Of a DNA stretch of 64,000 bases, positions 20,969 to 60,797 are shown piece after piece. Below the pieces are notes generated by a model. It made no database searches. It was not told the origin of the DNA and saw nothing but the letters and a program-made list of their open reading frames with translations. Within the stretch, counting starts at the first letter, position 1. Every line of letters starts with the position of its first letter. The translations under genes were made by a program, and so were the position numbers. Location of the stretch: NCBI GenBank assembly GCA_963840855.1, contig CAWJBB010000072.1, positions 1-64,000 of the forward strand. The letters are read 5' to 3'. This DNA is from an uncultured delta proteobacterium (GTDB lineage: Bacteria; Desulfobacterota; Binatia; UBA9968).

Positions 20969-22300
20969 ATGTCGCGTCATGCGCGACTCGGCTTGCTTGC
21001 CTTGCTGATCGCTATGGTTGCCGCCCGAACTGACTCATCGACACTCGCGCAAACGTCTTCCGCCGAATCGGCGCTTCTTGAACGTGCCCGCGCGATCCAC
21101 GAGAAAATCATCACCCTCGACACCCACATCGATTTCTCCCCAGGCGATCTAGCCGGTGAGCGAAATTACACGCAGCGCCTCGAAACCCAGTTCAATCTGC
21201 CAAAAATGAACGACGGCGGCCTTAATGCGCTGTTCTTTGTCGTTTACGTCGGCCAGACAAGGGAGACGCAGAATCCGGATGCGCTCAAGCCCGCAGGCTA
21301 CGAGCGCGCCTACAATGCGGCGATTGAAAAGTTCGACGCGGTGCGCCGTTTCGTTCTTGAGCTCGCTCCCGACTATATGGAACTGGCCGTGACCTCCAGC
21401 GACGTGCGTCGCATCCACGCGGCGGGCAAAAAGGCCGCTCTGGTGGGCGTCGAGAATGGCTATCCCATCGGCGAGTACATCAGCCGCGTCAAAGAATTCT
21501 ATGATCGTGGCGCGCGGTATCTGTCGCTGACGCACAACGGCCACAATCAGCTCTCGGATTCCCACACCGGCGAACGGGATGGTTGGAAATGGCATGGGCT
21601 CTCGCCCCTCGGCAAACTCATCATCGCCGAAATGAACCGGATCGGAATCATGATCGATGTTTCCCACGCGTCCAAGGAATCGATGATGCAAACGGCGGCC
21701 CTGTCGACAGCCCCGATCATCGCGTCCCACTCCGCGGCGCGCGCGCTCTGCGACGTGAGCCGCAATATGGACGACGAACAACTTCTCACCCTCAAGAAAA
21801 CCGGCGGCGTCATCCAGATCGTCGCCTATGGCGGCTTCGTCAAGACGCCGAAAGCTGAATCGCCGGAGCGCACGGCCGCCCTGAGCGCGCTCAGGAATGA
21901 GTACAATCTGCCGGAGCCGCGAGCGGCCGGCCCGCGTGTACGCTCAAGCGCGCAATCGGCGCTAAGAAAACTTTCCGCCGAGGACAGCGCGGAATACGAA
22001 CAGAAACTCGAAAGGATAGACAATCTCCATCCCGGCGACCCCCCGGCCTCGGTCAAGGAATTCGTCGATCACATCGACTATGCCGTGAAATTATTAGGAA
22101 TCGATCACGTCGGCATTGCCTCGGACTTCGACGGCGGCGGTGGAATCGCTGGCTGGAACGACGCCAGCGAAACGTTCAACGTGACCCTGGAGCTTGTCCG
22201 CCACGGCTACGAGGAAAAACAGATCGAAAAACTCTGGGGCGGCAATCTGCTCAGGGTGATGGACGAAGTCCAGCGCATTGCGCGGGAGATGCAGAAATAA
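20969..22300 (+). CDS. Membrane dipeptidase (peptidase M19)
   Basis: DTHID, GVENG, IDVSH, ASHS and GIASDFDGG; signal peptide. Confidence 0.9.
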   Translation: MSRHARLGLLALLIAMVAARTDSSTLAQTSSAESALLERARAIHEKIITLDTHIDFSPGDLAGERNYTQRLETQFNLPKMNDGGLNALFFVVYVGQTRETQNPDALKPAGYERAYNAAIEKFDAVRRFVLELAPDYMELAVTSSDVRRIHAAGKKAALVGVENGYPIGEYISRVKEFYDRGARYLSLTHNGHNQLSDSHTGERDGWKWHGLSPLGKLIIAEMNRIGIMIDVSHASKESMMQTAALSTAPIIASHSAARALCDVSRNMDDEQLLTLKKTGGVIQIVAYGGFVKTPKAESPERTAALSALRNEYNLPEPRAAGPRVRSSAQSALRKLSAEDSAEYEQKLERIDNLHPGDPPASVKEFVDHIDYAVKLLGIDHVGIASDFDGGGGIAGWNDASETFNVTLELVRHGYEEKQIEKLWGGNLLRVMDEVQRIAREMQK

Positions 22301-23499: not shown

Positions 23500-23565
23500 C
23501 TCGCCCCCGGAAAGGTAACACTCGGTATTATGCAACTCACCGTTGAATCGGTCTTTAGCGTGGTC

Positions 23566-23637
23566 GGCTGGAACGACGCCAGTGACACTTTCAAACTGAT
23601 CTTGAAGATTCCCGGGTACGGCTACCGTGAGAAGGAT
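23566..23637 (+). pseudogene. Degenerate copy of the dipeptidase 3' region
   Basis: ggctggaacgacgccag identical to 22151-22167; GWNDASDTF...GYREK versus GWNDASETF...GYEEK. Confidence 0.6.
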
Positions 23638-23712
23638 GAGATGATTCATAGCATATCCGTACGCAAGTGCGGATCGTTCAGAGCGAAACGATTAGCGACT
23701 GAGACATTACGT

Positions 23713-24273
23713 ATGGACGATCTGATCAAAAAACTGACTGCGGAACAGGCTCTCGAAGTCGTCAAGCGGCTGAGCGAGAAAGGGGGCAAGATTCGCAGAA
23801 GCGGTGCTCGCCGAGGCGAGGAACCTTTTGACGGCGGTCGACGTGGATCAAACAGCCGATGAAGTTTTCGTCGTTCTCGATTCGATAGACGTACAGGATT
23901 GTTGGGACAGGTCAGGCAAATCGCGCTACGGTTACACCGAGCCTAGTGAAGCAGCTGTCGAACTCGTGGAGGAAGAACTTCGACCGTTTTACGACCAAGC
24001 CAAACGATACCGAGAGTTGGGTATGCCGGAGCAAGAAACAATTTACTGTATGGGAGTAATTTTAGGAATCTACCGCTATGAGCATGAGTCCAAGTCAGCG
24101 TTTAGGGAGTGGTGCGAGGACATTCCAATTGAATGCGCTGGCTACCTGCTAGACACCTGGCGAAAACGAAACCGAGGCAAGGCTGCGCCCAGGCGATGGA
24201 TGAATTCATTCAACGCCGTTGTCCGAAATGGGCGAAGTATTTAATTCCCAAACGAGACGCGGGTCGTCGTTAA
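23713..24273 (+). CDS. Hypothetical protein (frameshifts near 23800 and 24190)
   Basis: MDDLIKKLTAEQ..., ORF 23804-24244 and alternative-frame ...EFIQRRCPKWAKYL join into one plausible acidic protein. Confidence 0.55.
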
Positions 24274-24523: not shown

Positions 24524-24796
24524 ATGAAATTCGATTGGGACCCAAGGAAGGCCAAGGCCAATCTCCGCAAGCACGGTGTCTCGTTCGACGAGGGGGCTAC
24601 TGTGTTCCTTGACCCGATGGCCGTGTCAGGTCCAGATCCCGACCATTCTCTCGAAGAGGATCGCTATATTACATTTGGCTTCTCGCGCCTCGGTCGGCTG
24701 TTGGCCGTATGCCATACTTACCGGCCTGGCGCGATTCGAATCATTAATGCACGTCGCGTAACGCGCGGTGAAAGGAAACTGTATGAAGAAGGCTAA
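24524..24796 (+). CDS. brnT: BrnT family toxin
   Basis: MKFDWDPRKAKANLRKHGVSF, EDRY and IRIINAR. Confidence 0.9.
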   Translation: MKFDWDPRKAKANLRKHGVSFDEGATVFLDPMAVSGPDPDHSLEEDRYITFGFSRLGRLLAVCHTYRPGAIRIINARRVTRGERKLYEEG

Positions 24797-25040
24797 GGAT
24801 GAAATGCGACGGGAGTATAAGCGTTCGGACTTCGCAAGGCTTGAGCGTGGAAAATTCTACGCCGAAGTCGCTAAAGGAACAGCAGTCGCCCTGCTTGAGC
24901 CGCCCATCGCCAAGGCATTTCCGACGTCTAAGGCCGTAAACGAGGCCTTGCACGGTCTGTTGGCACTTACCGAGCAAACATCACGCATAACAATGCGGTC
25001 AACCGGACGCCGGGTAAAACGCGGCGGCGCTGCGCGGTAG
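24783..25040 (+). CDS. Cognate antitoxin (BrnA-like)
   Basis: Overlaps the toxin stop; DEMRREY, RGKFY and AFPTSKAVNEAL. Confidence 0.8.
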   Translation: MKKAKDEMRREYKRSDFARLERGKFYAEVAKGTAVALLEPPIAKAFPTSKAVNEALHGLLALTEQTSRITMRSTGRRVKRGGAAR

Positions 25041-25078: not shown

Positions 25079-27108
25079 CCGCAGTCGAGGTCGGCGGAAC
25101 CTTGGTTCCTTGCGTTCAAACGCAAGCATTGAGATTCATCCGGTCATGGTACCCGACGATCCAGCCAGAGCCGGCAGCGCCATCGACAACGCGGTCAAGA
25201 AATACGCCTGAATCGCTCGAACGCTAATTAAGACACGGTTCGAACGGATCCGGGGGGGGGAAATGACGTACGGACAGGTCTTGCAACGTCACATTGTCGT
25301 AATGCAAGATCCGACTCCGTACACGACCCACCAGGTTGTGATTCAGTAAAGGCCGAAAATAGAGAATAGCACGAAAGCAAACCTAACCCGTGAATTTGAA
25401 TCTTTGATACGGAGACACAAGCCAGATGATCCAAGCGTTGTCACGTCGGTTGCGCGTCAGAGACGACGGTAGTGGCAAAGGCAGAGAGATCGATGGGACG
25501 TTTCCAGAATTCGAAACCGAGGACGCGATCATTCTCCTTGGCGATCCAGGAATGGGAAAGACAACCTTCTTTAAGGAGGCTGCCAATGCAAATTATAGTA
25601 CCGTCCGAAATTTCCTAATTGACCCTCATGCTGCAGCGGGGGAGGCGCTTTTCCTCGATGCCCTCGATGAATACAGAACTATCGCAAGCGGGCAGGATGC
25701 CAGCGCCGAAGTTGCCAAAGCACTGTGCGCTCTGAAGAAGCCCAAGTTTCGGTTGTCGTGCAGAGCGGCGGACTGGTTCGGATCACCAGATCAAGAAGTT
25801 CTCAGAGCCGGCAGCTCCTCCGGGCGCGTCGTTGTTCTCGAGCTCCGCCCACTCTCGCGTGATGAAATTCTTAATGCTGTCCAGGGAATAGTTACGCACC
25901 CGGTTGTATTTCTGGATGAAGCGGAATCAGCGGGGCTCGGAAATCTGTTGGGTAACCTCAAACTCTTGAGCTCGTGGCACGGGCTTGGGAAACAGACAAA
26001 AAGCCTCGCAACAAGTTCGAGGCATACGACATAGGAGTCTCTGAACTGCTTAAGGAGATGAATGTTCAACACGTTCGGCGTGGCGTTACCAGTGTTGATC
26101 CCAACGGTTTGCGAAAAGCTGCAAGCGCAGCAGCTTCTAATATATTGCTTTCCAACTCGGTTGGCATTTCGCGCGCAGAGCCAGCGGACGGCGCTGGTTA
26201 CGTTAGGCTTGCAGTTGTGCCGTATCCGGACAGAAGCGAACTTGATGCCGTATTGACGCGACGACTCTTTATTTCCCATGAGGTGGATCGGTTCGATCCT
26301 ATCCACCGAACCATTGCTGAGTTCTTGGCGGCAGAGGACTTATCTAATCGCGTCATGAACGGCCTTCCAATTGATCGAGTGATGGCGCTGATATGTGGGG
26401 TTGATGGAAGACCGGTTTCCTCACTCCGGGGCCTTTTCGCTTGGTTGATGTGCAAGGTTGGGCATCTCGCAGAGGGTTACGTCGAGCGCGACCCCTATGG
26501 AGTCGCGACGTACGGCGATGCCAGCGTGCTGCCACCGAACGCACAATGCGCAGTCTGGGCGGGACTTCGGACGCTTCGCGACCCATGGTTTCTCGCGAAC
26601 GAGGATGATCGCGGCTCGTTCCGTGGCCTCGCCAATCTCAATACAGCGAAAATCATCCGCGAAATTCTCCAAGACCCAGCGACGGGAGTTCATCTGAAAA
26701 TCGCCGCCCTCGAAGCGATCGCAAACAGCACGGAAAACATAGGACTGAACACAATTATACGCGCCATCGTGTCGGAGAAGAACGAGAACGCTTGGATTAG
26801 ATCAACTGCTTTGCGGGCCTTCGCGAAATCTGTCCAAAATGATTGGCCGCAGTTAAACTCTCTCGATGCTGAACTTGTCCAAGCAACTGATGATCTCGAC
26901 GCCATAGAAGTTCGAGCAGAACTTCTCCGAATGACACGAGCACACGGTAACCTGCCGCGGCGCTTACTCTCGATCATGGACAAGCTGGTTCTGCCAAGAG
27001 GAAATGGAGCGTTTTCGGCCGATTTCGTCGACTGCGTGCTCTGCCATCCGATACCGATTTGGACGAGATTCTCGACGGCGCGTCTGGTGTGTTGATGCGG
27101 ATACCTAA

Positions 27109-28414
27109 GGCGTTGTAAATAAATAAAGGTATCAATCGAAGGATAATTGGTGTATGATTTTCGAGCATGAACAGGCTGTCCGAATTGAAGCGGAAGTTGC
27201 GTACCGCATGGCCGCATTTGGACGAACGTACGCGGCGCATCATGGCTGCCAGTGAAGCATTGAGTCTGGGCTATGGAGGGGTTTCTGCGGTACGACGTGC
27301 GTGTGGCTTGTCGCGCAAGGCGATCCGCAAAGGGATGCGGGAAATCCAGGCAAGGGGTAAGCCGTTGGTGGGCCGTATTCGTCGGCCCGGAGCGGGCCGC
27401 AAACCCATCATCGAGTCCGATCCGGGGCTGGTGCAGACGATCGAGGGGTTGATTGATGAGCAAACGCGCGGAGACCCGCAGTCTGCGCTGCGTTGGATTT
27501 GCAAAAGTACGCGAGCCATCGCCCAGGAACTGGATCAGCAGCAACATCCTGCCAGCCACATGAAGGTCGCGCAGATTCTTCATCAACTGGGCTATAGCCT
27601 CCAGAGCAATCGCAAAACCGAGGAGGGAGCGGATCACCCCGATCGCGATGCCCAGTTTCGCCACATCAACCTCACGGTCAAAAGATGCCTGAGGCAAGGG
27701 ATCCCAGTCATTTCGGTGGACACGAAAAAGAAGGAACTGGTTGGGAACTACCACAATGGCGGCCAGCAATGGCGTGTGGCCAAAAAGCCCAGGCGGGTTC
27801 AAGGTCACGACTTTCCCAGTCCAGAAGTTGCCCGCGCCTATCCCTACGGCATTTACGACATTGGACGCAACGCCGGTTTTGTTAACGTGGGAACCGACCA
27901 CGATACCGGTGCCTTTGCGGTGGCATCGATTCGGGGTTGGTGGCGCACGGAGGGCCGGCGCATTTATCCGCATGCGAAAACGATCCTGATTACGGCCGAC
28001 GGCGGTGGCAGTAACGGGTGGCGGTTGCGGCTGTGGAAGTTGGAGCTGCAAAAATTCGCCAACCAGACCGCACTGGGCATTGAGGTCTGTCACTTTCCTC
28101 CCGGCACCAGCAAATGGAACAAAATCGAGCACCGACTGTTTTCCTTTATCTCATCGAATTGGCGCGGCGAGCCGTTGCGGGACTACGAAACCATCGTCCA
28201 TCTCATCGCCGCGACGACCACGGCAAAGGGATTGAAAGTCACCTGCCGACTCGATCGGCGCAAATACCCCACTGGGCGCGCAGTCAGCGATGAAGAGATG
28301 CAGCGCGTTAACCTCAAACCCAACAAGTTTCATGGCGAGTGGAACTACCTCATCAAGCCAAACCGGAAGACTAGTGGATGATACTAGTTGGTACCTTTAT
28401 TTATTTACAATTCC
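27109..28414 (+). mobile_element. ISAzo13-family insertion sequence
   Basis: IRs ggcgttgtaaataaataaaggtatcaa / ttggtacctttatttatttacaattcc; 3-bp TAA target duplication (27106-27108, 28415-28417). Confidence 0.92.
27167..28381 (+). CDS. ISAzo13-family transposase
   Basis: ISVDTKKKELVG, ITADGGGSNG and PPGTSKWNKIEHRLF. Confidence 0.95.
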   Translation: MNRLSELKRKLRTAWPHLDERTRRIMAASEALSLGYGGVSAVRRACGLSRKAIRKGMREIQARGKPLVGRIRRPGAGRKPIIESDPGLVQTIEGLIDEQTRGDPQSALRWICKSTRAIAQELDQQQHPASHMKVAQILHQLGYSLQSNRKTEEGADHPDRDAQFRHINLTVKRCLRQGIPVISVDTKKKELVGNYHNGGQQWRVAKKPRRVQGHDFPSPEVARAYPYGIYDIGRNAGFVNVGTDHDTGAFAVASIRGWWRTEGRRIYPHAKTILITADGGGSNGWRLRLWKLELQKFANQTALGIEVCHFPPGTSKWNKIEHRLFSFISSNWRGEPLRDYETIVHLIAATTTAKGLKVTCRLDRRKYPTGRAVSDEEMQRVNLKPNKFHGEWNYLIKPNRKTSG

Positions 28415-29261
28415 TAAGAACGAAGATCGATTCGAGCTCCAGTCAATTTTCGATGAGTGGTTGAAACGGCGTCTTGATACCCCTACGCCAATCACTCCCG
28501 CGTCGCTGGCCAGTTGGCTTCGAAGTATACGTGTTGGCCGTGATTATCATTCAGAGACAACTCTGGCGTCTCTGAAGGCACGTTTTGAACAGGAGCCATC
28601 GCTCTTTCAGGAGGTGTTCGAATTGCGCGCCAATGTCGTCCCAAACCAGGATCGGTCATTCTCGCTCTTTCTCGCTGTCGACCTTTGGAAACTATTGCCA
28701 CGACGGTGTGGCCCGTTTCCCAATGCGAGTTCTTCTTAGCGTCGGCAGAGAAAAACAATAATCCGGAACATGCGGCAGATTTTTTCCATATGTATCTATC
28801 ATGGTTTCCGAGCGACGGAGCACCTGTCGCGCTGTCTGAAGCAGGATTTGACCTATTGAACCGCCGAACTGATGTGGCAACAGTGCTTGGGAATTGGAAC
28901 ATATGCGAGATTGAAAATTGGAGAAATGAACAGTTCGAGCGGCGAGAGGAAAAGATCCACAAAAGTGCGGCGAACCGCACTCATAACGTTTCGTATTTAA
29001 CACCGCGGCTTACTACCATTCGAGAAGGAGACGAAGAAAACGCATTGGCGTGGGCGGCACAACTAGCTAGTTTATGTCGCGAAACTCGCAAAAAATCTTA
29101 CGGGTGCGACATGGGTCAAGTTTTTTCTGTGACATAGTTGTATCATTTTGAGCTGAAAGTGGACAGCAAAGAGTCGTGTGGGGTGTTCGATGGACCGCGC
29201 AGTGATGGCAGAAAAGACTACGCCCAGGGAGCGTCGAATGAACGTTTGAGAGCGACAGTGG

Positions 29262-30680
29262 CTACGCCGCTCGTCGTAGCCGTTTGTTCTTTTGGTTTAA
29301 CAGGTGAGCGATGTTCATGAGGTTGTTGGTAAGCACAGCGGCGCCGACCAACACCTCAAAGCGCTCAGGTCCCTCGGCCAGACAGCGCTTCATGCCGCGG
29401 CCACGAAAGAGCACGGATATGCGGCCCTCAATGCCTGCGCGGAAGCGTTGTCCTTTCTTGAACTCTGAGCTCTTTTCGAGCGCTTCGCGTTGGGAGGTTC
29501 TTTTGCCACCGCACTGCGGAATGCAGACGAGCTTCACAGTGCTATCCTGGCATGCTTTGATGTTCTCAGCGCTGAAAAAGCCGCGGTCACCACTGTACCA
29601 ATCGGGAGCCAAACCGAAAGTCTCCTGATGACGCTTCAGCGACGGTGTGACGTGGATGTGATCGGAGGGATTACCTTCAAGCACGCGGTACTGGGTGATC
29701 AAACCGCGGGCACTTTCAGCGAGAAAGATCTTGTGGCCGAACTCCATCGGTTTTTGTACTTTCCCCCGCTTGATCAGATCACTGTGGGGTTCAAAGATCG
29801 AGTAGATTTTCTCCTCGGTTGGAACCTGCTCTCCCTTGAGCACGCGTCGGCTGCTCTGATCGATGACGCGGGTGCCGAGTTGGCAGTAGTGATCGATCTT
29901 TCTTCGAAGCTCGTTAATGATAATGTCGTCCATCAGGTCAACAGCGCATTGATCTTTGGTCTTTTCGAGCACCCCTCGGGCATTTTGGACGACCTGCTGG
30001 GTGGTCCCGATGAGTTGGCGATATTTACCCTTTTGCTGGGTGTGGCGTTGCCTCGCTGTCATGCGTTGGATCTCTTGCATGCGACGCCGTGCACAGCGTG
30101 TGTGGTTAGTAAAGTTATCGATCCCATTGGGAAGAAGTTTTCCGAGACGATCGATGAGCCGCGTCAGGACGCGCACTACATCCCAGAGCAAAGTATTATC
30201 GGTTGGATGATGGATATCGGTTTCGGTGACCGTCGTATCGACGCGCAGTCTCTTGCCGTCCTCCAGTCCCAGATCGACGGCAGCTTTAAGGACCAAGTCA
30301 TTGATGGCTTGTATGGTTTTGGGGTGAAGTTTATTAAAGGCCCGATTGAAAGCGTCATGCTTGGGTACGCGCCGGCTGTAAAAACCCGTGAATCGGCGCA
30401 GCGTGTATCCGTCAGCGATTCGTTCGCTGAGTTCCCGATAGTCCCAGTTCTTCACTCGCATCAGGATCAGCGACCGAAGCACCTGCGCCGGGGTCATGGC
30501 TGTGCGGCCGGTGGCAGGCTTTTTCAGACCCAGCTGAAGATCTTGGCGCACCGGCTCGATGATCTGTGGCCGATAATCGAGGAAGTCGGACATCCTCTTG
30601 AGAATCGGGTCGAGATCGATCCCCTGAGTGAGAAATTCCAGATCAGCGAAGCTGACTTGCGGCTCGACGACTCTTGTCAT
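29262..30680 (-). CDS. ISNCY-family DDE transposase
   Basis: RVDTTVTETDIHHPTD, KIYSIFEPH, EFGHK, GDRGF and FRAGIEGRIS. Confidence 0.92.
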   Translation of the reverse strand: MTRVVEPQVSFADLEFLTQGIDLDPILKRMSDFLDYRPQIIEPVRQDLQLGLKKPATGRTAMTPAQVLRSLILMRVKNWDYRELSERIADGYTLRRFTGFYSRRVPKHDAFNRAFNKLHPKTIQAINDLVLKAAVDLGLEDGKRLRVDTTVTETDIHHPTDNTLLWDVVRVLTRLIDRLGKLLPNGIDNFTNHTRCARRRMQEIQRMTARQRHTQQKGKYRQLIGTTQQVVQNARGVLEKTKDQCAVDLMDDIIINELRRKIDHYCQLGTRVIDQSSRRVLKGEQVPTEEKIYSIFEPHSDLIKRGKVQKPMEFGHKIFLAESARGLITQYRVLEGNPSDHIHVTPSLKRHQETFGLAPDWYSGDRGFFSAENIKACQDSTVKLVCIPQCGGKRTSQREALEKSSEFKKGQRFRAGIEGRISVLFRGRGMKRCLAEGPERFEVLVGAAVLTNNLMNIAHLLNQKNKRLRRAA

Positions 30681-31024
30681 GGTTTGATCTTTTGAATCTT
30701 TGTGGTCCTTTGATGCTTGAGGGCTTTGGTATATCGAAGAGCGGTTTGATGCAGCAGCTCCTGAAGAACACGGCCGTTGTCGAGGCTAAGCCGTATCTCT
30801 GGGACCAATGGCTCTGGGATGTAAATCGCAAAGCGGCGTCCTTTAATGCGCACGTATAGGATATGACTGGGGTGCTGTTCGCCCGAACGGCAGGCTGCGC
30901 AGTGTTCGCGCACGCAGGGACTTCGCCGCAGGCTCAACGACCCCAGCGCAGCCGGCCACAGCCCTGCGGCTTGTTTTTGGAACCATTGCTCGACATCGGC
31001 GGCAGTTTCAGTTTTGCGCGACAT
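30677..31024 (-). CDS. Cys/His-rich IS accessory protein (DUF6788-like)
   Basis: GSLSLRRSPCVREHCAACRSGEQH; 4-nt overlap with the transposase start; lies inside the IRs. Confidence 0.7.
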   Translation of the reverse strand: MSRKTETAADVEQWFQKQAAGLWPAALGSLSLRRSPCVREHCAACRSGEQHPSHILYVRIKGRRFAIYIPEPLVPEIRLSLDNGRVLQELLHQTALRYTKALKHQRTTKIQKIKP

Positions 31025-32952
31025 GTTCTATGTGTGCCATAAGGCATACATGCTTGTCAAGTAAAAAATGAAACTAAGAAGTAAAAAATTCTTGATTTAG
31101 CAGTGAGTTGCGAGTTTTGCGACAGAAACTATCTAGGATTTTTTTATGATAGTGAGGACGTTCCCGGTGCGCGCGAACGACTGGTCAAGGTGACGAATGA
31201 AGAAATCGCAGATGCTCTTATTGAAGGATTCATCCGTTACGCGGAGAAGCCGACCATCCCGAAAAAAGAAGAAGTAATTGAGAGCTGGCGAGCAAACAGC
31301 ATACCTTACACCCACACTTTATTGAGTTTATCGGTGTTCTTGCGACTTAACGCAGGCCGGACCGTGCCTAAGGAAGCGCTTCCGCATTGCATCGTAGCAG
31401 CGGTTACTGCCAGTAATGCGGATGACAGAGTGCCTGGTTATAATGAGAGGCTGTCAGCATGGGTGCTTCAGGAAGCAAGTCAAAGTCCAGCACTCGTGAG
31501 ATCGGTTCTAAAGGAAGTATGGTATTCTACCGCGACGACGAAAATGGGATTTCTACCGGGATACTATGAGTTGAGGGACAACCCTGGCTCGCAACAATTT
31601 CTTGCTTCTCTGTCAGCCGATGTTCTCAAGGCGGGAATTAATGACGATCACGATACAGTTGGCAGCCTCGTGTCCGTTCTCCTATTCAATGATCGCCAGG
31701 CAGCCCTGGAAATAGGAGAAGCTGAACTTACGCGAAATGAGTTGTCAGCACTGGTACGTGCAATCTGGATCACCGCCCTTTTCGTGATTGACCCGAGCAA
31801 GTATTTGGTGTCTTGGAAAACCCTCATATTAGGACCGGATGAGGTCCTTTGGGAATCCATTGATTTGATTGGAGATGGCCGGCCGGAAAAAGGGGAAGCT
31901 GTTATTCTCGCGGCGGTACAACGCGCAGAAATCGTCATGTTAGTGGGACAGCGATTTGCAAATATAGCGCATCCGATCGGCAGCTCAGACGGTAGCCGAA
32001 ATCCTTGGGACGCGGCGGAATTTGTCGCCAATCAGATCAAGCTGTTAGCCACTGATAGTTCACCGGACACTGATGCCCAGCTTGAACGGTTGGAGAACGA
32101 CAACGGCTTGGCAAGCTACCGCGACTTAATCAGACATCTACGGGCGCAACACCAAAAGCAGCAGCGTGAATCTAGCTTTACCTTTGCGTCGCCTGAGCAA
32201 GTAGCAGAAGCCATTTTAAATCGCGCTCCTTCCACCCCAAATGACCTGTTGGCGTACATTGTTGATCACCTTAGTGCTCTGTCACGCGAAGTGGCGGGAA
32301 CACAAACAGAAAGATACCGTGCTTACTGGAATGAGAGTGGGCGCGATCTCGACCACCCGAAACATGAAGAAGTTTGCTCGGGATTATTAGCAGACGATTT
32401 GCAGAACCGAGTGAAGGCTCAAAACCTTATCGTAACGGTTGAACATCACATGGTTGCAGACAAGGAATGCGATCTGGTGGTGTTACAGGGAACCCAGCGA
32501 CTTTTGCCGATAGAGGTCAAGCACCACTACCATGCCGAGCTTTGGACCGCGTGGCGTACCCAACTTGACCGATTATACACACGAGATGCGAAGGCAGGTG
32601 GACTCGGTATCTATCTCGTTTTATGGTCGGGTGAGGCAAAGGACCGTATGATGCCGAAGCTTCCAGACGGCTTCCAACGTCCAACTAGTGCTGCAGAGGT
32701 TAAGAGCGCACTTGAGTCGGTCATACCGGGAACAGAGCGGCACCGGATTCGCGTCATTGTCGTGGATCTTTCGGCGCCTTGATACCTGCCACCTTCGTTC
32801 GAGCTGGCAAGTGGAAAAAACAGCGACTGGCAGTCAGCGTGAATTTCCGCGAAGGGCCATCGACGATAGCTCGACGAACGACCCGCTTGAGCGATAGTAT
32901 CGGGGCCGCAATCGGCATCGCGTCTTGAATTTCGATGTTCCATACAGGAGTC

Positions 32953-33230
32953 AAAAAAGAGGTCAAGTCCGCTATTAGCTCTTAACCCTGTCGTGCAGGG
33001 GCGACAAGGCGGTTTTTTGTGGCGCATTCATTGCGCATCGAATTCCCGGTGGGTTACTATCATTTCATGAACCATAGCCATTCCCGCAGGAATATTTTCT
33101 TTGACAAAAAAAGTCGCTACGGTTTTTCGACTCGCGTTCCGACAATTCGCGGCTACGGAAGATGGAGATTTACGCTCCGGAAAGACGACGAAGAGCCTAA
33201 TAAGCTAACAGCGGACTTGACCCTTTTTTC
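32953..33230 (+). mobile_element. Deleted RAYT (Y1 HUH transposase) relic between ~28-bp inverted repeats
   Basis: aaaaaagaggtcaagtccgctattagct / agctaacagcggacttgacccttttttc; internal MAHSLRIEFPVGYYHFMN...RRNIF resembles RAYT N-termini. Confidence 0.65.
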
Positions 33231-33238
33231 AGCCATCA

Positions 33239-34429
33239 CTAGATCCTCATGATACGCGGTAGGTGATCGAACATTTCACCTCTATTCACCAGCCGGCCAG
33301 AGCCAACGACGTCGAAATGAACCATCTCGTTGTCCCGGAAGTCACGCAGAATTCCCGGCGGATCTTCACTGCGCAACACGGCTTGGATTGCCGATAACCA
33401 GAGCTTGCGCACCTGAATGACGCCGCGGTCCGAGAAGCCAAGATGTTCTGCCGTTCGATCCGCGATGCGGCCTTGGCTTATCTGCGCCGCAGCGTCTTGA
33501 CCGTTGACCGTCGTCATGTCGAATTTCACGCGCGTGCCGCGCATCAGCGGTGGAGGTTTCGGCGAGTTCCGCGCTGACCGAATCGTCGATTTGCCGTTTT
33601 TGAACGGATAGAACTTCAAAATAAACGAGTAGGTATTGTAGTCATCCACCGGCATACGCCAGGCAACGTCGGCAAAATAAGCGTTCGAGTCGCCCGGCAG
33701 CGAACCACCGTCATGGATGACCAGTATCGGCGGTGTGTAGGAAACTTCCCGATGCCATTCTTTGCCCGGTTCCGGTCCTTGGCGGCGCGCAACATAACTA
33801 GCGAATAGATCGTCGGCCAGCACTTCAAACTCGGGGCTCTCGGCACGTTCCGGATTCTGCCGTACGCCGTTGACGTCGCGGCCGTGTAGGATGGTCGCGT
33901 GCACCGGATCGAGACAGTTGTCGAGCTGGTTCATGAAATTGCATTCGCGCAGGTAACCATTCAGCGTGCGCTCGCCATCTTGGCGGACGAGAAAGTCGTA
34001 GCGCGGAAAGAGCGGCGCTTCGCCGGGGCCCATATAAGCCCAGACAATGCCGCCTTGCTCCCGGGTGGGGTAGGCTTTGAGCTTGATCTTATCGTTGAAA
34101 TTACTTCCCGCGGGCTCGCCCGGCTGTTCGATGCAGCGGCCATTCACGTCGAAAACCCAGCCATGATAGCAGCAGCGGATACCGCCGGCTTCGATCCAGC
34201 CGTATTCGAGCGACGTGCCGCGGTGCGGGCAGCTCGGTTCGGTCAAGCCGACGCGGCCAAACTGGTCGCGAAATAGCAGGAAGTCTTCCGCTAGCCGACG
34301 GACAATTTTGGGTTCAGCCGCTTTGATCTCATCAGAAAAACTCACCGGTAGCCAATATCTACGCAACGTTTCGCCCGCCGGCGTCCCGGGGCCGACGCGG
34401 GTCATCATGTCGTTTTCTCGTTGGTCCAT
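33239..34429 (-). CDS. Rieske non-heme iron oxygenase (phthalate 4,5-dioxygenase/VanA-like group)
   Basis: CPHRG...CCYHGW, DPVHATILH and EHLGFSDRGV. Confidence 0.9.
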   Translation of the reverse strand: MDQRENDMMTRVGPGTPAGETLRRYWLPVSFSDEIKAAEPKIVRRLAEDFLLFRDQFGRVGLTEPSCPHRGTSLEYGWIEAGGIRCCYHGWVFDVNGRCIEQPGEPAGSNFNDKIKLKAYPTREQGGIVWAYMGPGEAPLFPRYDFLVRQDGERTLNGYLRECNFMNQLDNCLDPVHATILHGRDVNGVRQNPERAESPEFEVLADDLFASYVARRQGPEPGKEWHREVSYTPPILVIHDGGSLPGDSNAYFADVAWRMPVDDYNTYSFILKFYPFKNGKSTIRSARNSPKPPPLMRGTRVKFDMTTVNGQDAAAQISQGRIADRTAEHLGFSDRGVIQVRKLWLSAIQAVLRSEDPPGILRDFRDNEMVHFDVVGSGRLVNRGEMFDHLPRIMRI

Positions 34430-59535: not shown

Positions 59536-59639
59536 GCAACGAATTTGCGAGCGGTGACTTTTAAAGTCCTCATTGGGAATGTTTGAAATCCCTCTTCATC
59601 AGGCGAAACAATTTTCAGCGAAATGTTTGCGAGGCGAAC

Positions 59640-60797
59640 ATGAGCAGTGTTTGCGGCAATAGGGTTAACCCAAATCGTCATGCCCCCGCGGAAGGCGGGC
59701 ATCCAGGTGGTTCTGGGAGAGAACTGGATTTCCGCTTTCGCGGGAATGACGGCAGGGGCATTTTTCGGTCGGTTTCAAGCCCGCATCTCTTAAATTCCTC
59801 GGCTTACAGTCTGAGGTGGTTTAAATTGCTTTTGCTTGCCTCCTTCGTCGGTGGCTTTTGGTGGGACGTTGGCACCGCTCAAGAGCTGAAGCGCCTTCGC
59901 TACGGCACGACGATCAGCACCGTCAATTTACCGGTCTGGGTTGCCAAAGAAAGCCGTCTGTTCGCCAAGTACGGGCTCGACCCTGAAGTGATTATGATTC
60001 AGGCCGGCGCTTTGACGACCTTGGCGATTATCAGCGGGGAGTTGCAGTTCTCCGGCGCCGGCGCCGCGTCGGTTCTGGCGGCGCGGATCAAAGGCGGTGA
60101 TATTGCCCTCGTGGCATGTCCGGCGGATTCGGATCTTGTTTATCTCGTGGCTCGGCCGGAGATAAAAAGCGCCGCCGAGCTCAAAGGAAAATCGAGCGCG
60201 GTGACCCGTCTGGGTTCGACGACTCATTTCTATCTGCGCTCGGCGCTCAAGTACGCGGGGCTTAATGCCGAAAAAGATGTCACGATCCTCCAGCTCGGCA
60301 CTGAATACGCTGCGGCGTTGGAAACGGGAAGGATTGCCGCCGCGGCGTTGCCCTTCGATCTCGCGTTGCCCTATTTGCAGAAAGGCTGGCCGGTGCTGCT
60401 GGATTTATCCAAGACCGATTTCGTCTATCCCGCCTCTTGCGTGGTGAGCAGCCGGGCCTTTGTGAAGGAGAATCCTGATATCGTGGAACGATTTCTCAAA
60501 GCGTACGTCGAAGCGATCCATCTAATGAAAAAGGATCACAGCGCCGGCGAAAGAGCCTATATCAAGTGGCTCAAACCGAAAGACCCGCTGCTTGCCAAGA
60601 AGGCGGTGGAAGCCTACGCGAACTTATTCAAGCCGATTCCGCGCGTCACCGATCGAGGCATCAAGGCGGTCCTGGAGGAGCTCGCGTCATCGACGCCCGT
60701 GCCGAAAGAGATGATCGACCGTCCGGATTACTTCCGAGACAGCGGACCGTTGGAAAAACTCGTCGCGAGCGGCTGGATCGAGCAACTCAGGAAATAG
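59640..60797 (+). CDS. ABC substrate-binding protein (SsuA/NMT1-like) with in-frame palindromic insert
   Basis: LPVWVAKESRLFAKYGLD and ELKGK...TRLGSTT; GAGG RBS; REP at 59676-59751. Confidence 0.85.
   Translation: MSSVCGNRVNPNRHAPAEGGHPGGSGRELDFRFRGNDGRGIFRSVSSPHLLNSSAYSLRWFKLLLLASFVGGFWWDVGTAQELKRLRYGTTISTVNLPVWVAKESRLFAKYGLDPEVIMIQAGALTTLAIISGELQFSGAGAASVLAARIKGGDIALVACPADSDLVYLVARPEIKSAAELKGKSSAVTRLGSTTHFYLRSALKYAGLNAEKDVTILQLGTEYAAALETGRIAAAALPFDLALPYLQKGWPVLLDLSKTDFVYPASCVVSSRAFVKENPDIVERFLKAYVEAIHLMKKDHSAGERAYIKWLKPKDPLLAKKAVEAYANLFKPIPRVTDRGIKAVLEELASSTPVPKEMIDRPDYFRDSGPLEKLVASGWIEQLRK

Follow-up and report, generated by a model that had tools for sequence, protein, structure and literature searches.

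A probable dead copy of an Erebus (EruA)/Avs10-type antiphage gene, interrupted by two insertion sequences, in an uncultured member of the Binatia

The antiphage system EruA reportedly received its name in 2024 and was dissected in 2026. We take van den Berg et al. 2024 (Cell Host Microbe 32:1427) to be where the names Erebus and Hypnos originate. In a 2026 Nature paper (PMC13581612), Erebus, Hypnos and bNACHT64, for which Kibby et al. 2023 and van den Berg et al. 2024 are cited, are grouped as Avs10, which senses the phage major capsid protein. According to the main text of that paper, mutation or deletion of the effector abolished cell death in all cases, and the source data for its Supplementary Fig. 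13 list the mutant E1263A-K1265A of EhAvs10, the protein from Enterobacter hormaechei, in which E1263 and K1265 form an ExK near the C-terminus. In the preprint by Kibby et al. (bioRxiv 2022), a location of the effector at the extreme C-terminus is already described as the rarer arrangement among bacterial NACHT proteins, and the name bNACHT64 has 0 occurrences in its text. The effector-last layout is thus the published standard for the EruA/Avs10 family. Here we analyzed a stretch of 64,000 nucleotides from an uncultured delta proteobacterium of the Binatia (contig CAWJBB010000072.1, positions 1 to 64,000 of the forward strand; hereafter the window) and conclude, with a probability of roughly 0.9, that the locus at 25426-32782 (+) is a dead copy of an antiphage protein that is encoded by a single gene, resembles nucleotide-binding leucine-rich repeat (NLR) proteins and belongs to the Erebus (EruA)/Avs10 family.

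The coding pieces of this locus on the + strand were first traced by a list of open reading frames (ORFs) together with a three-frame read, with two transposase genes lying in between. The presence of a hidden gene was confirmed by tblastn, in which an intact homolog, P0001 (1,327 aa), was collinear with window positions 25426-32782 (+) in six segments (Table 1), covering residues 1-1326 at ~73% identity (about 978 of 1,333 aligned positions identical). In its unbroken form the gene would encode ~1,325 aa, from an ATG at 25426 to a stop codon at 32780-32782. An earlier reading made from the sequence and its ORF list alone (the sequence-only reading) had proposed a single hidden gene with this start and stop, invisible to ordinary gene calling, and was borne out on each of these points; the gene is missed by gene calling because it is broken. 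It had further held that five pieces join into one gene once two insertion sequence (IS) elements are removed. This proved incorrect: three 1-nt deletions still switch the frame after removal, and there are six segments, not five. With two IS insertions and three 1-nt deletions, the window contains no intact ORF for this protein, and the broken copy is the only one in the 7.1-Mb, 93-contig genome. The EruA-like gene in this genome is thus a pseudogene from which no full-length protein can be made, and it is therefore unable to act in the way the sequence-only reading had described.

We next consider the family to which the gene belonged. When the last 549 aa were used as a query for longer proteins, 134 relatives were found at E ≤ 1e-3, mostly of 1,320-1,335 aa and the best of them 74% identical; intact homologs of ~1,326 aa, 39-74% identical over the same 549 aa, numbered more than 120 and came from soil and sediment bacteria. 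The NCBIfam model NF058535, "NACHT domain-containing antiphage protein EruA", matched five intact homologs across the whole model (E 1e-237 to 1e-266), with P0001 covering model positions 17-1318 of 1,318 (E 1.2e-266). Consistent with this, the pieces in the window matched the same model in collinear order, at positions 17-181 (E 4e-34), 181-499 (E 2.4e-67), 661-773 (E 7.9e-8) and 776-1318 (E 2.4e-112). NCBIfam thus recognizes the family where Pfam and PADLOC give weak P-loop matches to both the pieces and the intact homologs; with PADLOC-DB v2 (2023), the window pieces and the five intact homologs yielded matches at the level of the P-loop, the best at E 0.0015. The locus had earlier been put forward as a candidate for a new antiphage architecture, provided that it matched no system already described. 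Such a match was found, NF058535 fitting end to end and Erebus, Hypnos and bNACHT64 having been published as Avs10, and the architecture is therefore not new.

The layout of the protein had been read correctly, with a nucleoside triphosphatase (NTPase) at the extreme N-terminus, a helical region and a C-terminal domain with an E..D..ExK pattern. Conservation of the motifs was read from an alignment of 54 sequences, and a second alignment of 21 sequences was used for the C-terminal columns. All motifs named earlier (Walker A, LFLDALDE, HRTIAEFLAA and E..CDL..IEVK) were present and conserved in the 54-sequence alignment, and both LFLDALDE, which resembles Walker B, and HRTIAEFLAA were nearly invariant. 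Because Walker A occupies residues 39-46, there is no space for an N-terminal effector; in the canonical Avs/NLR layout the effector precedes the NTPase, which is not the arrangement found here. The C-terminal ExK that characterizes the effector of EruA/Avs10 was found in the DUF8371 domain (Table 1), in which E, D and ExK were invariant throughout both alignments (54 of 54 sequences in the first, 21 of 21 in the second). This pattern is the signature of PD-(D/E)xK nucleases, whose restriction-endonuclease-like alpha-beta-beta-beta-alpha-beta fold has clustered E, D and ExK residues and to which the domain would putatively belong, and from its position near the C-terminus we infer that the ExK of the clade falls in the same alignment column as E1263/K1265 of EhAvs10. 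DUF8371 had 1,712 representatives at E ≤ 1e-3, and the 150 matches listed were mostly either the C-terminus of proteins of ~1,330-1,370 aa or shorter fragments. The Atlas clusters closest to the domain that carry a name other than DUF8371 were restriction endonuclease (REase) families (score 0.79, a lead only). With a copy of Pfam that lacks PF28130, neither the last 199 aa nor the 350 aa before them gave any match, even at E up to 10. Overall, the earlier proposal of an NLR-like antiphage protein of the STAND (signal transduction ATPases that have numerous domains)/NACHT type, in which the NTPase comes first and an ExK-type effector comes last, was supported.

Several observations weigh against assigning the locus to this family. 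Firstly, the five intact homologs scored 791-888 bits and did not reach the equivalog cut-off of NF058535, which is 1,000 bits. Because of these scores, the window gene, whose pieces sum to ~754 bits, was filed as a divergent member of the family and not as an equivalog; the clade is accordingly a relative that has diverged, and it may respond to another trigger than EhAvs10 does. Secondly, the Pfam P-loop and NACHT models matched the N-terminal NTPase below their cut-offs (AAA_22, E 1.3e-4), the match of the NACHT model being weak (E 0.019). Thirdly, profile searches of the PDB returned no nuclease, the matches being to P-loop proteins only or to AscE at E 0.16. Further, an hhalign comparison of the DUF8371 domain with three DpnII-MboI REase sequences placed the motifs in register at a non-significant E of 0.058, with a probability of 0.94 that we took to be on a percent scale, that is, under 1%, and with a thin DpnII-MboI profile, since that family was present in only 3 of the 151 genomes of the phylum.

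The scores below the EruA cut-off, together with the 28% identity between P0001 and an EruA that passes it and with a middle region, presumably the sensor, that is the least conserved part of the protein (56-63% vs 74-83% elsewhere), would also be compatible with the clade being a separate, unnamed STAND defence family that merely resembles Erebus and has its own trigger and possibly other effector chemistry. We consider this improbable, because the EruA profile matches end to end in proteins of equal length and equal domain order, the identical invariant catalytic residues are present, and the EruA scores form a continuum (795, 816, 831, 877, 984 and 1,027-1,107 bits) and not two groups. Indeed, of 12 more distant relatives reached via the C-terminal domain, 7 exceeded the 1,000-bit cut-off, at 1,027-1,107 bits, and the alignment of P0001 with P0141, a protein that passes the cut-off, extended over residues 21-1325 (E 1e-124). 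Within the assignment to the Erebus (EruA)/Avs10 family, we entertain as a speculative and rather unlikely extension that the ~1,326-aa clade is a distinct Avs10-like lineage, that its fast-evolving middle may have a target different from the HK97 capsid protein, and that its frequent decay may reflect the fitness cost of a nuclease-armed sensor.

Turning to the elements that broke the gene, the first, IS-A, is an ISAzo13-family insertion sequence with an intact transposase (404 aa; Pfam PF07592, E 5e-135) that scored above the NF033519 cut-off, imperfect terminal inverted repeats (31 nt, 87% complementary) and a 5-bp target-site duplication, CTAAG, the first copy of which forms the last 5 nt of pseudogene segment 3. 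A further copy of IS-A, with 2 mismatches in 1,045 nt and flanked by CTTAG, lies on contig C61 of the same genome. A 404-aa ORF at 59583-60797 was considered as another copy of the IS-A transposase and was rejected on comparison. Contigs of relatives, drawn from four public metagenome runs (X1-X4) and aligned on the window, bridge both IS sites, and for IS-A the empty site was seen directly, record 25 of X4 passing from window position 27104 straight to 28414. The junction LMRIP-KNEDRF proposed earlier is, according to this empty site, exact.

The second element, IS-B, is an insertion sequence of the ISNCY family, with an intact 472-aa transposase above the NF033593 cut-off, inverted repeats (29 nt, 90% complementary) and multiple copies, four further ones being present in the genome at 98.6-99.7% identity, two of them in tandem on contig C41. 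Since near-identical further copies of both elements occur in the genome, IS-A and IS-B look recently active there. The ends of IS-B sit in CTAG repeats, CTAGCTAG on the left and CTATCTAG on the right, so that its exact border is ambiguous, as is its target duplication, also on comparison of four copies. The two flanking 8-mers are 2,066 nt apart, which is no multiple of three, and excisions of 2,064, 2,066 or 2,070 nt are possible. The junction AWAAQ-LGFFYD that had been proposed is thus possible, with an excision of 2,070 nt, but is one of three options: relatives carry two more residues at this point (..AWAAxVYxG..), a spacing that fits AWAAQL-YLGFFYD and an excision of 2,064 nt. In IS-B, a second ORF of 115 aa lies downstream of the transposase gene, with a 4-nt overlap; it gave a weak match to DUF6788 (E 6.4e-4, below the cut-off) and is conserved in the other copies, the whole element being 98.6-99.7% identical. 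The tandem pair on C41 (133078-137206, locus L006) is arranged head to tail with a CTAG-rich junction common to both copies, and one copy, with 28 mismatches and 2 gaps, has diverged further.

The six segments run in frames 1, 0 and 2 up to IS-A, 0 and 2 between the two elements, and 2 after IS-B, and the three switches within uninterrupted DNA correspond to 1-nt deletions relative to relatives. At the first (near 25956), relatives have AAC CCT or AAC CCC and the window AACCT; at the second (near 26981), relatives have ATG GAA CAG and the window ATGGACAAG; at the third (near 28700), relatives have CCA GCx ACG and the window CCACGACG, a single G having been lost outside any homopolymer. Every listed record among the contigs of related organisms that crosses a deletion site has one extra letter compared with the window: records 1 of X1, 8 of X2, 16 of X3 and 24 of X4 at the first site, records 3 of X1 and 25 of X4 at the second, and records 19 and 20 of X3 and 25 of X4 at the third. 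The source reads of the assembly were sought in 22 listed sequencing runs, in each of which fewer than half of the sampled words were present (0.28 at best). Assembly error could underlie deletions 1 and 2, because both lie in short C or A runs, and this too counts against the decay as we describe it.

It is accordingly conceivable that both IS insertions are real and that some or all of the three deletions are errors of the assembly consensus, in which case the gene would have been killed recently and by the IS elements only. In keeping with such errors, deletion 1 lies within a C run and deletion 2 within an AA pair, identical 2-kb repeats, the tandem pair included, are resolved inside contigs, which suggests long reads, and the extra base is present in record 16 of X3, which is 99% identical to the window and differs from it by only 3 letters in 315. 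However, deletion 3 removes a single G outside any run, three near-identical copies of IS-B align over ~5.7 kb with 0-1 gaps, and adjacent ORFs of 387-471 aa are unbroken and have full-length Pfam matches. We therefore hold consensus error to be an unlikely explanation for the deletions, and the verdict that the locus is a pseudogene holds whether or not they are errors.

Table 1. Features of the EruA-like pseudogene and its surroundings (positions count from the first letter of the window; identities are to P0001; IS, insertion sequence)
Feature	Location (strand)	Extent	Detail
tblastn segment 1	25426-25932 (+)	P0001 aa 1-170, frame 1	83% identity
tblastn segment 2	25929-26984 (+)	P0001 aa 170-521, frame 3	77% identity
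tblastn segment 3	26981-27097 (+)	P0001 aa 521-559, frame 2	56% identity
tblastn segment 4	28410-28700 (+)	P0001 aa 559-655, frame 3	63% identity
tblastn segment 5	28688-29065 (+)	P0001 aa 652-777, frame 2	60% identity
tblastn segment 6	31130-32776 (+)	P0001 aa 778-1326, frame 2	74% identity
Pseudogene segment 1	25426..25956 (+)	aa 1 to ~177, frame 1	Ends at 1-nt deletion 1
Pseudogene segment 2	25956..26981 (+)	aa ~178-520, frame 0	Remainder of NTPase module; ends at 1-nt deletion 2
Pseudogene segment 3	26981..27109 (+)	aa ~521-561, frame 2	Terminal residues ..LMRIPK
Pseudogene segment 4	28419..28700 (+)	aa ~562-655, frame 0	NEDRFELQ..; ends at 1-nt deletion 3
Pseudogene segment 5	28700..29065 (+)	aa ~656-777, frame 2	Terminal residues ..AWAAQL
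Pseudogene segment 6	31130..32782 (+)	aa ~778-1326, frame 2	Helical region, then C-terminal domain
Walker A	25540-25563	aa 39-46	GDPGMGKT
Walker B-like motif	25648-25671		LFLDALDE
Conserved motif	26304-26333		HRTIAEFLAA
C-terminal (putative effector) domain, DUF8371	32036..32779 (+)	Last ~250 aa	Pfam 38.1 PF28130, from precomputed labels; Atlas score 0.96
Invariant E of DUF8371 domain	32441-32443		
Invariant D of DUF8371 domain	32471-32473		
Invariant E-x-K of DUF8371 domain	32513-32521		IEVK; followed by Q-containing QL..LY helix
IS-A, ISAzo13 family	27110..28413 (+)	1,304 bp	NF033519, 580.6 bits vs 200-bit cut-off
IS-A transposase	27167-28381 (+)	404 aa	
IS-A target-site duplication	27105-27109 and 28414-28418	5 bp	CTAAG
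IS-B, ISNCY family	29067..31131 (-)	~2,065 bp	NF033593, 412.7 bits vs 325-bit cut-off
IS-B transposase	29262-30680 (-)	472 aa	
IS-B second ORF	30677-31024 (-)	115 aa	
CTAG repeat, left end of IS-B	29063-29070	8-mer	CTAGCTAG
CTAG repeat, right end of IS-B	31129-31136	8-mer	CTATCTAG
BrnT toxin gene	24524-24796 (+)		Upstream of pseudogene, context only; PF04365, E 1e-26
Antitoxin-sized ORF	24768-25040 (+)	90 aa	Overlaps BrnT gene; no significant Pfam match

The genomic surroundings of the gene were considered both in the window and in 11 related loci from species-representative genomes, whose 108 flanking ORFs were compared with PADLOC at E ≤ 1e-8 after 10 ORFs overlapping the gene had been removed. 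A PADLOC match was present among the flanking ORFs in only 6 of the 11 loci and in none of the other 5, a descriptive count, made without a baseline, that also weighs against our main reading. The 5 loci that have no PADLOC neighbour, together with the metabolic genes on the flanks of the window (an M19 dipeptidase, a MetE-like protein, a Rieske oxygenase and an acyl-CoA ligase), would be what is expected if the family were a housekeeping or regulatory STAND NTPase and no immune gene. We regard this as highly implausible. NF058535 is curated as antiphage in both name and model, and toxicity and defence data for Avs10 are published in PMC13581612. Further, strong matches to defence-type genes stand directly beside the gene in three of the related loci: PDC-S13 (385 bits) in L011, SIR2 and a type IV restriction enzyme in L014, and PDC-S20/PifA-like in L015. 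The patchy distribution across phyla and the frequent decay of the gene are also typical of defence genes. With regard to decay, EruA-like genes broken by frameshifts or a stop were found in 4 of the 11 full-length related loci: the gene in L010 is cut short by an in-frame stop, the one in L014 changes frame twice and the one in L018 (titled Leptospira interrogans) once, and the one in L022 is heavily degraded. Assembly error is possible in these four, because three of them are metagenome-assembled genomes of one naming series. In L010 (10732-12009) and L022 (11055-12305), the EruA-like gene is followed, 1-1.5 kb downstream, by a gene for a protein of ~420 aa with a C-terminal match to DrmC-like, phospholipase D-type proteins (E ~1e-15).

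In the window itself, two unknown ORFs and the BrnT toxin gene lie upstream of the pseudogene, and the GC content is lower over ~23.5-33.5 kb, which is consistent with an inserted islet. Of the integron toxin-antitoxin cassette proposed there earlier, the BrnT gene was confirmed. Among the ORFs scanned on both sides of the pseudogene, Pfam gave no match to a DUF4143 ATPase. A relic of a REP-associated tyrosine transposase (RAYT) had been proposed beside the pseudogene; the 77-aa ORF at 33019-33252 (+) matched nothing in Pfam at E up to 1, and the proposal was not upheld. Separately, a 25-aa stretch, VVGWNDASDTFKLILKIPGYGYREK, at 23560-23634 (+), inside the ORF at 23530-23862, is similar to a C-terminal portion of the M19 dipeptidase whose gene lies at 20969-22300 (13 of 25 residues identical, E 6e-8 for the pair), and may be what remains of a second dipeptidase gene where the lower-GC islet has its left border.

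Intact relatives (~1,326 aa) would comprise an N-terminal NACHT-type P-loop NTPase that is preceded by no effector, a long helical region and, as the last ~250 aa, the DUF8371 domain. By analogy with EhAvs10, the intact members of the clade most likely work in an Avs10-like manner: the helical sensor would bind a phage protein (in the case of EhAvs10, the major capsid protein with its HK97 fold); oligomerisation would then be driven by the NTPase; and the C-terminal nuclease would thereby be switched on, so that the infected cell is killed or DNA is degraded. In this genome, inactivation resulted from the insertion of an ISAzo13-family element into a CTAAG site; an ISNCY-family element was inserted into a CTAG-rich site in addition, and the gene has the three 1-nt deletions. 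The gene is thus real and its architecture was read correctly, but the system is known and is dead here. The case illustrates that a hidden giant gene, once reconstructed, can pass for a new architecture while having the standard layout of a known system. In genome annotation, "IS-disrupted EruA-like pseudogene" should be the name given to the locus, and in Erebus/Avs10-type proteins the effector label could be assigned to the DUF8371 domain; beyond annotation, the importance of the finding is little.

Comparison with the described systems places the clade closest to Erebus/EruA, with which it has in common a single gene of ~1,320-1,350 aa, a profile match end to end, an NTPase at the extreme N-terminus, a long helical putative sensor and a C-terminal ExK effector. 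It differs from Erebus/EruA in its scores, which lie below 1,000 bits, in the low identity of P0001 to the protein that passes the cut-off and, for the window copy, in being a pseudogene. As in Avs10, where the effector-dead mutant of EhAvs10 in the source data of PMC13581612 hits a C-terminal ExK, the catalytic-type motif stands near the end of the protein. Hypnos (HyoA, NF058534) has the NTPase core and the C-terminal domain in common with the clade, HyoA model positions 1187-1428 matching the window gene over its final 246 aa at E 8.5e-11. However, this match is partial and much weaker (87-124 bits vs a 1,200-bit cut-off), and the HyoA model is ~110 positions longer. The bNACHT proteins are likewise NACHT-type STAND antiphage proteins, but most of them, according to Kibby et al. 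(bioRxiv 2022), have the effector N-terminally. Similarly, Avs1-4/AVAST (Gao et al., as cited in PMC13581612) combine a STAND NTPase with a helical sensor of a conserved phage protein, and their oligomerisation activates a nuclease; they have an N-terminal effector (Cap4, Mrr and others), whereas the clade described here has its effector last, with a Walker A that begins at residue 39.

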